Shown: positions 51,001 through 57,000 of the stretch, one piece after another
How positions within the stretch are numbered: the stretch's first letter is position 1
How the letters are laid out: the number at the start of each line of letters is the position of its first letter
Assembly (NCBI RefSeq): GCF_053078305.1
Contig: NZ_CP166879.1
Length of the DNA stretch: 64,000 bases
Reading direction: 5' to 3' (one strand)
Made by a program: the position numbers

Positions 51001-54000
51001 TAAGCGCGCCAGCAAATACTGGCCCCGTCGCGATCGCCTGGATACAGCTATCGACTACCTGAACACTCAGGCCGGTGAAGGTATCATCCTGAATGCTGAT
51101 CATATCCCTGAGCGTGACGTCACTCCCGCATCAGATGAGATTATCAATGAGATCACTCAGGCAATCACCGAAATTAACAAGACATGGGATGACCTGCTTC
51201 CCTTATGTTCCAAAACATTCCGTCGCACGATTGCATCACATGAATATCTCAGTCAGGAAGAAGCTGTCAAAACGCTTGATTTTGTCAAAAAGAAAGCTGC
51301 CAGAAACAAGGCCACGGCGGAAGCGAAAATTCACGCCACCACGGAAAATAACAGCGAGGCCGTGTCATGACACCAGAAATTATTCTCCAGCGAACTGGCG
51401 TGGATATTACCAGCCTCGACCAGGGCGATGATGGATGGCACAAGCTGAGACTCGGTGTTATCACTGCTTCAGAAGTTCACAATGTGATAGCAAAGCCACG
51501 TTCCGGCAGCAAATGGCCTGATACAAAAATCTCATACTTCCACACCCTGCTGGCTGAAGTTTGTACCGGCGTGGCACCGGAAGTTAACGCTAAGTCGCTC
51601 GCATGGGGAAAGCAATACGAAGATGATGCCCGTGCCCTCTTCGAATTTATCGCGGATGTTACCGTCTCGGAAACGCCAATAATTTTTCGTGACGAAAGCA
51701 TGCGCACCGCCTGCTCTCCCGACGGTTTATGCAGCGACGGTAACGGTCTTGAGCTTAAATGCCCCTTCACGTCCCGCGACTTTATGAAGTTCCGGCTTGG
51801 CGGCTTTGACGCTATCAAGCCTGCTTACATGGCCCAGGTGCAATTCAGCATGTGGGTTACAGACAAGGACGCCTGGTACTTCGCCAACTACGACCCACGC
51901 ATGAAGCGTGAAGGCCTGCATTATGTCGTGGTCGAGCGGGATGAAAAGTACATGGCGAGTTTTGATGAGATGGTGCCGGAGTTCATCGACAAAATGGACG
52001 AAGCACTGGCGGAAATTGGTTTTGTATTTGGAGAACAATGGGGGGTTAATAACTAATGGATGAAGTGATTTTTACTTATAACGAAGAATCAGCACTGACC
52101 GCCGGACAAGGTAGTTTTATTACCGAAACGGGTGCGCATATCATTAACATCACCGAAGCAGAACTCAAGCAATCAGAAAAAGGTGCCCGATTCATTGAGT
52201 TTTCTGGAGAATCCGACGACGGACGGAAAATCCAATATCTCAGTGTTTGTGTTCAGAAGAATGACGGCACTGAAAATAAATTTGGGGCGAGCATTATTCA
52301 CGCCATGATGGGATGCACAGGAATTGGGCAGTTAACGCAGCATATGGTTTCCGTCAGTAAATATGTTGCACCTGAGTTTCACGGAAAGAAAATCGGACTC
52401 GTCCTCCAGAAAGTATTAACCACAAACAGAAAGACTGGCGCAGACGGTTACCAGATGGAAATCCGCATTCCATTCATTGCAGAAACAGGGCAGACACTGA
52501 AAGAAAAAGCTGAAGGAAAGAAACCAGAAACGGTAGCAAATATGGTTTCCACTCTCAAAGACAAAGACAATCGCAGCAAAAACGTAAACCCGAATCACAC
52601 GGACGACCCAGGTTACTGGCAGTACGGCAGCGATAGTTTTTAATTCACAAACAAAACCAGGCTTTAAATGCAGTGAACAACTGAAGCCTTAACACACCTC
52701 TACACGGAGATATTAATATGAACCAGCATCAAACTGATGTTAATGTTTTCATTAACGACCTCGACGGCGGGGTATTTGTTAACAAACTTGGCGCGGTATT
52801 AAGTGAAGTTGCCTTTGGCGTAAACAGCACAAACAAAAAAGGAAAGGTATGTGTTGAATTCGAATTATCTTCACTTGATGAAAATCGCGTATCAGTTTCC
52901 CATAAACTAAAATTCACACGCCCGACAATGCGTGGTAGTAAATCAGAAGAAGACACAACTAACACCCCGATGTTTGTAAATAAAGGTGGTGAGCTTACTT
53001 TGTTCCAGAAAGACCAGGGACAGCTTTTTGATAAACAGGGCCAACATGACGCTGTTTTACGCTGAATATTCCCCGCCTTAAAACGCTCGCGCATTATCCC
53101 TAAATACATAAATTAAAGGTAAATATACATGTCTCAGTTAGATAGCAATGCCATTAAAGAAATTGTAAAACTCACCACTACTGCTTTTTCTGGTGAAAAT
53201 TTGCCGCTTACGGAATGCCCTGTTGCGTTATTGCCGGACAATGTAAATATCGAAAGTCTGGAACGATTCATGACAGAACGTTTTCGTTTCCGTGGAGTCA
53301 TGACCACAACCAGTATTGATGACTTTGTTGAATACAGCAAAGGGTATGCCGATGAGCACTCCCGCTGCTTCATTAACGCGGAAACGATGAAAGCAGTCAC
53401 TGTGTTCAATATCGGCACTCTGGAGCAACCTGGACACGCTGACAACAAGGCACTGCTGGAACTGAAAGCCACATCACCATATCGCGCATTGCGTGACGTT
53501 GACGGCAAAAAACAACTCCAGAAATCTCTCGCTGAATGGCTGGAAGACTGGGCCGACTTCCTCACAGCCTATAACAGCGACGGTAATGTGCTGGATATCA
53601 AACAGGCTATCTCTGCTGTCCGTCGTCTTACCATCGATGCAAAACGCAGTGCTGAATATGAAGAGCAAAACTTCAGCGGTAGCCGCTCAGTCATGGAGTC
53701 CGTAGAGGCTAAAAGCAAAGAAATCATGCCTGCCACTTTCCGCTTTGAATGCATCCCATACGAGGGCCTGGGCAACAGGGAATTCACGCTGCGATTAAGC
53801 ATTCTGACAAGCGAACAACCTGTTCTGGTGCTACGTATCGTGCGTGTTGAAGCTGCGGAAGAAGAAATTGCCAAAGAGTTCCGTGACCTGCTGAAAGAGC
53901 GTTTCGAAGAAGCAGAAATCTTAACCTTCATCGGCACGTTCTCAGTGTGATGAAATCTGTGACAGGGACGTCACGACATATCGCTCATATTTCACGAGAA

Positions 54001-57000
54001 AATACACAGTTCCAGGAGGGTATACTATGCAATTTAAAGATTTACCAGAGGATATTCAGAAAATAGCTGCGGATACGCTTAAAGCCCATTTATCGGTGCT
54101 TAATTTAACAAAGGAACCAAAGGCGAATCTGGAAAATATATCCCGTAACGTGCGAGATGTTTTTGTAGGGCTGTATTCTTATGACAATGAAAAGCACGAG
54201 GAACATATTCAAAATGGTTGCATTAATAAATGTCAACAAAATATCAAACTTCCTGTTGCTGATAAAACAGAGCAGAAAACAGATGTATTAGTATTCTGGA
54301 ATACCGTTGAGGCTATCGCCAGGAGCACGATGTTGGAGTTTAACAACATCAATCATTCCGGGATCGACACTCATCAATCATCACATCGTGAGGGGTTTTC
54401 CATTCTTCTAACTCTGTTACAAGAGCAAGGCGAATATCCTCAGCCGACATCAAACAATACTGAGCAATAGTCTATTCTCGTACGCTGCAACGTGAGGTCG
54501 TGCGCCGGACACGGGTAAACATCCGGCAATTCCAGCTTACAACCAATTCCCCTCCCATAACGAGACGAAAATATGACAACCGAAATTGACTATCAGGTAT
54601 TGCATGACGTGTCGGAACGCGCAATTACAGCGATGACACATCTGTCAATATTACCAGGTGATGATGATTTATTAAGCGAAAAGAAGCTCAAGGAGCTTGG
54701 TATTGATATTGATGCGATTCACGCCTTTAAAATTATGGCCGGGCCAGAAACCGTGCTGTCACTACTGGATGAACGAGATGCATTAAACGAACGCATGGCC
54801 GAACTGGAGGCTAATTTAGCGGAGCTGGCCGAAGACCAACAGAAAGCGATTGAGTCAATTAAGCAGGCTGATTCGGCTGTTAAGTTGGCACACGAGAAGT
54901 TTTCAGCGCTGGCGGCGGAGAATGCCAGACTGAAGGCTGCGCACCCTCAACCATTCGGACATGAGATGATGAAGGCTCTTGATGCGTATGAGAAGCATCA
55001 GGATGAAGTGCCAGAGACTGGAATGCTCAATGCATTTTTCATCTTGCGCGACAGCATCCGTGTTGAAACCCCAGCCACCGACTCTTTCCTGTCTGAAGTG
55101 CGGGCGCAGGCGTTTAATGACCTTTGCTCGGTGTTCGTTAAGGACGCGACGGTTGTCGGGCTGGACGATGGCGACATCGTTACGGTGAAAGAAGCGAAGG
55201 ACGCCCTGCTGCATTGTGCGGAACAGCTTCGCAAAGGAGGCAACCAGTGAGCAAGATTGACTATCAGGCACTGCGTGATGCAGCAGTAGCAATTGAAACA
55301 GTAGCAACGCCTCAAAAATTGCTGGCATTTCGTATGAAAGTCACACCGTCGGTGGTACTGGCGCTGCTGGATGAAATTAAGCGCCTGGAGGACACAAATA
55401 TTGATGCTATGTGCCGAATTGCAGAACTGGAAGCGAGGGAAGCCGAGTTACCGGATGGCTACGAACCCCGTATGGGCCACCCAATAAATAGCGGTGAGCG
55501 GGTGGTAATGATGCCGCACCACTTTGGTGGATGGCTGGACCGCTTCGACGTCGAGCACGCATTGCAGGCAGCGGGGATCAAATTCAAAACAGCGGGGGGT
55601 GAGTACGAATGATTGAGGGTATTAGCAATAAATCGTTGAACACAGCATGTGTCGACGGTGGGTTGTTGTACAAAGTGACGTTTACGCAAATCGACAACAA
55701 AGATAACGCATTCACTGTGATTTACACGTCGCCAGAGATGGCGAAGAAGTGGGTGGACCTGCACAGGCTATGTGATTTTCGTGTTGAGTGGGGGTGCTAT
55801 GAAATGCGATGCAGATGGCATCATCGGGGGGATGAAAAAATGAGCACTACGCTTGAGCAATGGCTGGAACAGCAGCACGGCAAAATTGATGTTGATTGCG
55901 GCTGTGTGAGCACTGAAACGCTTATGCACTGGATGCGTGTGGCGTATGAGGCTGGCAACTCTCCGGTAACTCCGGATGGTTGGATAAGCTGTAGTGAGCG
56001 AATGCCGGATGACGGGCAGTGGTGCGTAGTGAACACAGAATACGGGTATTACGTGCAATGCTGGTCTGAAGGTCAAGGATGGCTTGGTGATTATATCAGC
56101 ATCCCTGAATGCGATGTAATCAATTGGATGCCGCTACCAGAACCGCCGCAGGAGGTTAACCGTGGCTAACCTGCAACTTGCCGTCAAAGGTGAATAAGAA
56201 TCCTCGCACTCGCGGGGATTTCTTTTATCTGAACTCGCTACGGCGAGCTTAAGAGGTTAAAACGATGAAAAATAATGTAATGAAAAATGGAACTATCGAC
56301 AGCCAGGCTCTGTTGAAAATGGTGAATGAAGCGCGGAGACTGTGCGGTGAAAAAGAAGTACGCAACAACGACTTCATTGCACGCATCAAAGATGAACTTG
56401 ATGGGGAGGGTTACGAAATTTTCGTAACCCCCATGGATAAGAAAAAAGGCGGTGCGGATCAGGTTGTTATTGTGATGACCTATAAACAAGCGCTTCGGGT
56501 TGCCGCTCGTGAATCTAAATCCGTCCGTCGTTCGCTGGTCGATCAACTGGAGTCAATGCAACAGCAACTGCAACAAAAAATCACCTCGAAACATTCGACT
56601 AACGGCCTTGAGGAATTCCGTAAAGCACGGGCGCTGAAAATGACCGTCGATACAATGAAAGACCTTTTCGGCTTCCTCCCCAACCTTGCCCCTGAAGCTA
56701 AACAGGTCGTTGCCGCCAGCCTGGTTAATCCCGTTGTAGGCGCTAACGTAATCCCGCTACCGATGATCAATGAACATTACTATTCGGCGTCAGAAGTTGG
56801 ATCACAACTCAAAATATCCGCGAACAAGGTTGGTCGCATTGCCAATACCTACATGCTCAAAACAGAACAATACGGGAAATGGTTCATCGACAAATCCCCG
56901 TATTCGGATAAGCAGGTAGAAAGCTTTCGATACAATAATCGGGGAGTACGGAAGATTGAAGAAATCCTGGAGGCGGAGAACAAAGCAGAGTTCGGAACCT

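Follow-up and report, generated by a model that had tools for sequence, protein, structure and literature searches.

The closest described relative of the first gene considered here is HkaK (SSB_HK620) of HK620, a bona fide single-stranded-DNA-binding protein (SSB) that binds single-stranded DNA (ssDNA), elutes with the apparent size of a tetramer, and stimulates the neighboring Sak4 annealase in vivo as well as in vitro, with its last six residues (NDYPPF) being needed for Sak4 binding to SSB-coated ssDNA (PMC5928155). For the yfd genes of Escherichia coli K-12, both the multicopy suppression of hda-185 and the inhibition of initiation at oriC depended on yfdQ but not on yfdP, YfdR was found to bind DnaA, and deletion of yfdQ resulted in weak sensitivity to methyl methanesulfonate (MMS) and H2O2 (PMC4776307). 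In addition, YfdQ production caused a resident phage to form plaques (bioRxiv 10.1101/413146), and the exo-xis genes of lambda are reported to inhibit host replication and alter lysogenization and induction (PMC3824215). Lambdoid early-left operons commonly contain a yfdP/yfdQ/yfbR-like cluster, which has no assigned function and was considered unlikely to be a hidden recombination system (PMC12315714). Here, we compare with these systems four consecutive open reading frames (ORF1 to ORF4) that lie directly downstream of exo in a 64,000-nucleotide (nt) stretch of contig NZ_CP166879.1 (NCBI RefSeq assembly GCF_053078305.1), referred to below as the window, which, as judged from its sequence, is a Shiga toxin (Stx)-converting lambdoid prophage.

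A preliminary description of this DNA had presented the four ORFs as one block of genes with no recognizable function and a candidate role in anti-defense or host takeover. We find instead that they probably, on balance, represent three mutually independent modules in the early-left (pL) operon of this prophage, namely, an SSB gene (ORF1) that is part of the recombination (Rec) module, a YfdP-YfdQ gene pair (ORF2 and ORF3), and ORF4. A single co-inherited block was considered and rejected, since SSB and RecT genes join YfdPQ only in the lineage of the window and relatives of ORF4 occur without YfdPQ. ORF2 to ORF4 are indeed without an assigned biochemical function, but ORF1 is a predicted SSB, and ORF2 and ORF3 are members of named families; the outcome that all four would fall into recombination or replication families, also considered in the preliminary description, applies to ORF1 only. 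The four plus-strand ORFs themselves (195, 115, 273, and 147 amino acids [aa]) are present as described (Table 1), and their PHROG matches (E values of 8e-69, 1.3e-44, 1e-112, and 4.3e-65, respectively) indicate that they are real genes and not chance ORFs. As each of the four strongly matches a PHROG family, we regard the long ORFs on the antisense strand of ORF2 and ORF3 as shadows.

Over approximately 80% of its length, the region from 50100 to 56200 is 98 to 99% identical to the Oslovirus phages P13374 (the phage of the O104:H4 outbreak), TL-2011c (98.7% identity, 81% coverage), and phi191, as well as to many Stx2a phages. The modules of ORF1 to ORF4 themselves show 98 to 100% identity to P13374, TL-2011c, and phi191, and the four-gene block is found in 125 of 5,426 complete E. 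coli genomes (at least 80% coverage, mostly 95 to 99% identity). Because each of the genes has a family that is already described and is essentially the same as in published Stx phages, the block can be considered already known, and the most useful leads that it offers are the apparent exchange of the SSB tail and the strict and widespread pairing of YfdP and YfdQ.

ORF1 is very probably the SSB of the Rec module. It shares 86% identity with HkaK (NP_112044) over residues 1 to 189 (E = 8e-128) and 84% identity with gp39 of HK629, and an identical gene is annotated as SSB in the RefSeq records of P13374 and TL-2011c. PGAP labels the same gene in NZ_AP042495 "DUF669 domain-containing protein," DUF669 being the family assigned to HkaK by Hutinet et al. 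(PMC5928155). ORF1 is also placed inside the recombination module, with its start overlapping the exo stop and its homologs directly following Sak4. Furthermore, a 2025 survey of lambdoid Rec modules reported that TL-2011c pairs a SAP-4 annealase with "SSB-2" of the HK620 type (PMC12315714). Based on the HkaK homology, the phrog_743 match, and this listing, we therefore place ORF1 as the predicted fourth function of an anti-RecBCD/SAP/nuclease/SSB module; its orthology to HkaK excludes the anti-defense role that the preliminary description had extended to it.

Three points weigh against the SSB assignment: the local Pfam model of DUF669 gave no match at E ≤ 0.1 to 1 for ORF1 or five homologs, single-sequence and profile searches of PDB sequences detected no solved SSB for ORF1, and an OB fold in ORF1 is putative. 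Acting as an SSB, ORF1 would coat the 3′ ssDNA exposed by Exo and pass it to the annealase via its short C-terminal tail, and the complete module would consist of an anti-RecBCD Gam, a RecT annealase, a 5′-3′ exonuclease, and an SSB. The annotation would then have to be corrected in that the Rec module of a clinically important Stx phage group has four functions, not three.

With respect to the tail, ORF1 ends in ...DDPGYWQYGSDSF, which is acidic and terminates in Phe, without the Pro-Phe end that is found in four of the five Sak4-linked homologs. These five, sampled outside the Stx RecT lineage (HK629 and Enterobacter, Aeromonas, Shewanella, and Vibrio phages), are all encoded directly after a Sak4-type ATPase, and their proteins end in PF with the exception of the Shewanella one (GDDWE), while the versions encoded after RecT and exo end in YGSDSF (window) or YGGDNF (PhiR12_3). 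The last six residues of SSB_HK620 carry the Pro-Phe end common to E. coli SSB (DDDIPF, quoted in PMC5928155), in contrast to those of ORF1. At the DNA level, homology to HK629 spans only approximately 52060 to 52610, beginning just past the ATG and ending just before the tail, with identity dropping from approximately 0.8 to 0.95 to approximately 0.5 past roughly 52610. In the tblastn search, the listed matches at 86 to 87% identity all end at residue 189 and overlie a Sak4/ATPase annotation where annotated; matches at ≥97% span residues 1 to 195 and overlie exo.

The tail may have been exchanged, YGSDSF for NDYPPF, to suit a RecT partner rather than Sak4, and we see about an even chance that this swap mirrors partner specificity. 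The difference could also be neutral mosaicism at a module boundary. With a core common to Sak4- and RecT-type modules and a tail that differs, this SSB offers a compact example of how phage recombination modules are rewired, and the tail contrast could guide the choice of pairs of single-strand annealing protein (SSAP) and SSB for recombineering.

ORF3 is a member of the YfdQ family, with PF10065 scoring 222.8 bits (cutoff, 26.6) and residues 27 to 271 aligning to model positions 24 to 269 of 269, and ORF2 is identical to protein P0121, which carries PF27127, the family named YfdP. A YfdQ profile retrieved 80 IMG/VR loci, with a YfdQ ORF detectable in 79, and a YfdP match lies directly upstream on the same strand, at a gap of 28 to 63 nt, in 78 of these 79. 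This count is based on matches of hidden Markov models (HMMs) and not on ORF clusters, because the greedy ORF caller sometimes chose an antisense 126-aa ORF opposite yfdP. The adjacency is kept in the phages VvAW1 (Vibrio), pAN (Pseudomonas), and Alcala (Xanthomonas) (hhalign E = 6.6e-39, 7.9e-27, and 5.1e-22, respectively), persists at a YfdQ identity of only 27 to 49%, and is also seen in unrelated metagenomic and genomic contigs, some with overlapping stop and start codons. With 596 representative YfdP clusters at 50% identity and YfdQ in 181 phage records, the two are among the more widespread phage gene pairs of uncharacterized function. We consider it highly likely that YfdP and YfdQ form one functional unit, and they may be an obligate pair that travels as a mobile two-gene cassette across phages of Gammaproteobacteria. 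In P13374, yfdP (5618 to 5964) lacks 1 nt of an A6 run, at the equivalent of approximately 52835 in the window, and is annotated as two fragments; the gene is intact in TL-2011c and the window, and P13374 has here either a true frameshift or a sequencing error in the homopolymer.

The YfdPQ pair is independent of the Rec module. Genes for SSB, RecT, exo, and gam stand beside YfdPQ only in nine of the 80 IMG/VR loci, all from the window's own lineage, so that the joining of the cassette to a whole Rec module, as in the window, is uncommon in this family; enterobacterial YfdQ relatives outside this lineage share at most approximately 65% identity with ORF3. In most enterobacterial relatives, an S24-type repressor gene is found a few genes upstream of YfdPQ (63/79 loci), and the pair is followed by a YfdR-like deoxynucleoside monophosphate (dNMP) phosphatase in 60 and by an Rv2179c-like 3′-5′ exonuclease in 41 of the 79. 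The same phosphatase and Rv2179c-like exoribonuclease follow YfdPQ in Pseudomonas phage pAN, making this a recurring four-gene neighborhood. Both the YfdR-like phosphatase and the exonuclease of this neighborhood are absent from the window: tblastn with the YfdR-like protein (phrog_318) against the whole window gave a best E value of 0.68, and ORF4 has no HD-domain match in Pfam.

ORF4 is mosaic, as its N- and C-terminal parts match different PHROGs: the first approximately 55 aa also occur in four other PHROGs, and phrog_25397 is matched by the C-terminal half. Searches of Pfam, NCBIfam, PADLOC, and PDB found no match for ORF4. By tblastn, it occurs in only 74 phage records, all of E. coli/Shigella, and a large protein search returned E. 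coli relatives only. Comparison with a 73%-identical homolog shows a central indel and a ratio of nonsynonymous to synonymous substitution rates (dN/dS) of 0.53, which indicates weak constraint, at least as estimated from this sequence pair. TL-2011c and P13374 carry a shorter, 131-aa ORF4 annotation. A 37%-identical relative in PPompW_132418 (3001 to 3408) is located in a Qin-like early region of the dicA-dicC type, between ydfC and the gene for a division inhibitor of the dicB type, at the position where K-12 has dicF. As this dicA-ydfC-dicB region of PPompW prophages contains the ORF4 relative without YfdPQ nearby, we treat ORF4 as an independent unit filling the YfdR slot, and ORF4-like genes are seen to move independently among lambdoid early-left operons. 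ORF4 is probably a fast-evolving, E. coli-restricted orphan in place of the DnaA-binding phosphohydrolase YfdR of most relatives.

The preliminary description had pointed to remote homology and structure searches, which were informative on the homology side, with ORF1 assigned as an SSB and the families of ORF2 and ORF3 named; fold searches with the YfdP and YfdQ models gave nothing convincing and no solved structure that suggests a function. When the four proteins were scanned against Pfam, NCBIfam, and PADLOC, the only match was DUF2303 for ORF3, and sub-threshold matches of ORF1 to ORF4 to ChlamPMP_M, Prion, SoxY, and NusB were discarded as noise. AlphaFold2 (AF2) models of ORF2 and ORF3 differ in quality, with YfdP predicted as a long helix packed on a three-stranded meander (predicted local distance difference test [pLDDT], 86.5) and YfdQ (pLDDT, 75.5) showing an ill-defined N-terminal helix and a disordered loop at residues 171 to 195. 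The YfdQ residues that are invariant in distant members (E45, R55, G56, E139, D140, R165, and R186) are scattered and mostly charged, and the PGHAD motif is not kept in these members; no catalytic site can be argued for YfdQ.

PDB sequence searches (single sequence and profile) retrieved only 9o7m ("YfdQ Protein"), which matches ORF3 over the full length at 36% identity (E = 1e-50) and contains 36 chains of one sequence, and gave nothing for ORF1, ORF2 (YfdP), or ORF4. We initially took 9o7m for the E. coli K-12 protein, an assignment that was dropped, as the entry is a Xanthomonas-phage homolog with 96% identity to that of Alcala (3507 to 4328). A literature search found no paper for the entry, which is also missing from the fold libraries used.

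As to what the pair does, we tentatively regard YfdPQ as a host-directed early factor that modulates host replication or induction, a possibility to which we attach limited confidence. A large YfdQ oligomer, aided by YfdP, would perturb host DNA replication or repair, and this perturbation would shift induction or the lysis-lysogeny decision, in the manner of an exo-xis-type early factor. The host takeover part of the preliminary description is retained in this narrower form, which fits the published exo-xis work on replication, lysogeny, and induction better (PMC3824215). In literature searches on 9O7M, YfdP, DUF2303, and the PHROG and Pfam accessions, PMC4776307 and bioRxiv 413146 were the only functional studies found. 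In Stx phages, any effect of YfdP-YfdQ on induction would bear on toxin release.

Several points weigh against a host-directed role. In K-12, neither DnaA nor YfdR was bound strongly by YfdQ, the effects depended on YfdR, and the authors conceded that overexpression artifacts are possible (PMC4776307). From the YfdQRST set of Noguchi and Katayama (2016), the window has yfdQ (ORF3) and a yfdS-type DUF551 gene but not yfdR, and without a YfdR homolog, the K-12 mechanism cannot carry over unchanged. Finally, that YfdQ may be a large homo-oligomer is suggested by the chain count of 9o7m only. A further reading is unlikely in our view: YfdP-YfdQ as a self-contained two-protein early effector of a new fold, in which a YfdQ homo-oligomer is loaded or regulated by YfdP and acts on the host replication machinery or an immune pathway, with ORF4 as an interchangeable third component that replaces YfdR in the Stx-phage lineage.

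The role raised in the preliminary description, restricted here to three genes, i.e., that ORF2 to ORF4 are anti-defense factors acting as early inhibitors of restriction, abortive infection, or signaling immunity, with YfdQ as a large acidic decoy or sponge, appears doubtful. The genes are early-left, accessory, and sporadic among lambdoid phages (PMC12315714), as such factors might be, YfdQ is acidic (isoelectric point [pI], 4.85) with a homolog in a 36-chain entry, and DNA methyltransferase genes are found shortly downstream in some contexts (locus L010 and pAN), as well as in the operon of the window (59123 to 59749). The mosaic, narrowly distributed, and weakly constrained ORF4 (dN/dS, 0.53) also resembles what is often seen in arms-race genes. 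However, none of the proteins shows homology or fold likeness to a characterized inhibitor, and no literature report was found; searches of PADLOC (which covers defense systems only), Pfam, NCBIfam, PDB, fold libraries, and the literature yielded no support for this role in ORF2 to ORF4. YfdP and YfdQ moreover keep their length and many residues at 27 to 60% identity across Gammaproteobacteria, which is more housekeeping-like, the published yfdQ phenotypes concern replication and induction and not immunity, and ORF1 is excluded from this role by its HkaK homology.

We likewise give a fairly low probability to YfdP-YfdQ being an accessory of nucleic acid metabolism, or of recombination and repair, that acts on phage DNA together with nucleases and nucleotide phosphatases. 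The neighborhoods described above favor it, with a YfdR-like dNMP phosphatase in 60 and an Rv2179c-like exonuclease in 41 of 79 loci and with the same exonuclease and phosphohydrolase in pAN. The VvAW1 pair is located among genes for a DEDD exonuclease, an HNH endonuclease, and an SSB, Alcala has a recombinase and an exonuclease downstream of the pair, and the weak MMS and H2O2 sensitivity of the yfdQ deletion would fit as well. Against this, YfdQ shows no invariant catalytic-looking motif, the window is without YfdR and without the exonuclease, and a hidden recombination role is unlikely, given that the cluster is also present alongside complete Rec modules rather than being limited to phages without one (PMC12315714). 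That ORF2 to ORF4 are decaying passengers with no contribution to the phage is very improbable, for although P13374 yfdP is split by the A6 deletion, ORF4 is annotated at 131 aa in TL-2011c and P13374, and yfdP was dispensable in the K-12 assay, the ORFs are intact with the block in 125 complete E. coli genomes, YfdP-YfdQ adjacency is strict over a wide phylogenetic distance, a strong Shine-Dalgarno sequence precedes ORF4, and the missing nucleotide in the homopolymer may reflect faulty sequencing.

The Gam-like/RecT/Exo module that the preliminary description had recognized upstream agrees with the PHROG and Pfam matches. At the first junction, the exo stop codon TAA (52054 to 52056) and the ORF1 ATG (52056 to 52058) overlap by one base (TAATG), so the translational coupling proposed there is plausible, and a G-rich stretch lies approximately 10 nt 5′ of the ATG. 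Gaps of 74, 63, 76, and 102 nt follow ORF1, ORF2, ORF3, and ORF4, respectively, and Shine-Dalgarno-like motifs precede ORF2 (GGAG), ORF3 (AAGG), and ORF4 (AGGAGG, the strongest). Promoter-like sites within the four-gene block do not exceed the shuffled expectation. Terminator-like matches number 7 against an expected 2.7 ± 1.5, six of them on the minus strand and the sole plus-strand match inside ORF2; this makes it plausible that the genes are co-transcribed from the early-left promoter. The integrase gene lies downstream (61330 to 62664), so the block fills the exo-to-int accessory interval of the early-left operon, in agreement with the early-left placement given in the preliminary description.

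Table 1. Coordinates of the Rec module, ORF1 to ORF4, and the genes that follow in the window
Feature	Position	Strand	Evidence
gam-like host-nuclease inhibitor, first gene of Rec module	50121..50402	+	phrog_1050 1.2e-48; P13374 and TL-2011c annotated likewise
RecT-family single-strand annealing protein	50369..51370	+	Pfam RecT 1.7e-24, phrog_148 6.7e-95
YqaJ/lambda-Exo-type exonuclease	51367..52056	+	Pfam YqaJ 3e-28, phrog_149 1.1e-62
ORF1, predicted HkaK/SSB_HK620-type phage SSB, 195 aa	52056..52643	+	phrog_743 "single strand DNA binding protein" 8e-69
ORF1 C-terminal tail codons (YGSDSF)	52623..52640	+	Protein alignments; sole segment not common with Sak4-linked homologs
ORF2, YfdP family, 115 aa	52718..53065	+	phrog_204 1.3e-44; PF27127 via identical protein P0121
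ORF3, YfdQ/DUF2303, 273 aa	53129..53950	+	PF10065 6.3e-66, phrog_210 1e-112
ORF4, lineage-restricted mosaic orphan, 147 aa	54027..54470	+	phrog_1363 4.3e-65
Two Ead/Ea22-like genes, exo-int accessory region continued	54573..55612	+	Pfam Ead_Ea22 5.3e-13, 1.1e-06
DUF551 protein, domain as in CPS-53 YfdS	55609..56169	+	Pfam DUF551 9.2e-12

Elsewhere in the window, we observe two antirepressor genes, each preceded by RNA elements that score above the Rfam gathering score: isrK (57728 to 57801) and C4 antisense RNA (57827 to 57910) precede an ORF6N antirepressor gene (57963 to 58640), and sRNA-Xcc1 (48757 to 48845) precedes an AntA/AntB antirepressor gene (48886 to 49524). The two antirepressors have a near-identical C-terminal half, and this one prophage appears to carry two ant modules under RNA control, in the style of P1/P7. 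The minus strand encodes two type II toxin-antitoxin pairs in or next to the early region, one with a HigB-like toxin and a helix-turn-helix (HTH) antitoxin (57045 to 57658) and one with HicA and HicB (46633 to 47228). Between the HicAB pair and the first antirepressor gene lies a 183-aa ORF (48068 to 48619) in a locally AT-rich segment (GC, 0.37), with a hydrophobic, signal-peptide-like N terminus and no Pfam match. In the late region, a 318-aa ORF on the minus strand (38696 to 39652) is a candidate for the Shiga toxin A subunit, by its size and the Stx2a-phage relatives only.

Compared with the known systems, ORF1 is like SSB_HK620 in its length (195 aa), its place at the end of the Rec module, its overlap with the preceding recombination gene, and its acidic C terminus ending in Phe. 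The partners differ, with Sak4 next to SSB_HK620 and RecT plus a YqaJ exonuclease in the module of ORF1, for which ssDNA binding is predicted. ORF3 belongs over its full length to the same family as the protein in 9o7m, but the latter comes from a distant host clade. The yfdP-yfdQ-yfdR-yfdS-yfdT genes of CPS-53 (KpLE1) in E. coli K-12 show the same YfdP-YfdQ order and orientation as ORF2-ORF3, and YfdS, a DUF551 protein (PMC4776307), has a counterpart further down the operon of the window (Table 1). CPS-53 has the HD-domain, DnaA-binding YfdR, whereas the window has ORF4 and two Ea22-like genes in that space. Pfam and PHROG scans of ORF1 to ORF4 returned no families named for the lambda exo-xis ORFs, no direct comparison having been made, and the likeness to these genes is one of position and phenotype only. 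In position, the exo-xis genes of lambda and Stx phages (orf60a, orf63, orf61, orf73, and ea22) are, like ORF1 to ORF4, pL-transcribed, non-essential accessory genes between exo and xis/int, and in the window, Ea22-like genes directly follow. In phenotype, the effects of lambda exo-xis genes on replication, lysogenization, and induction parallel those reported for yfdQ (PMC3824215, PMC4776307).

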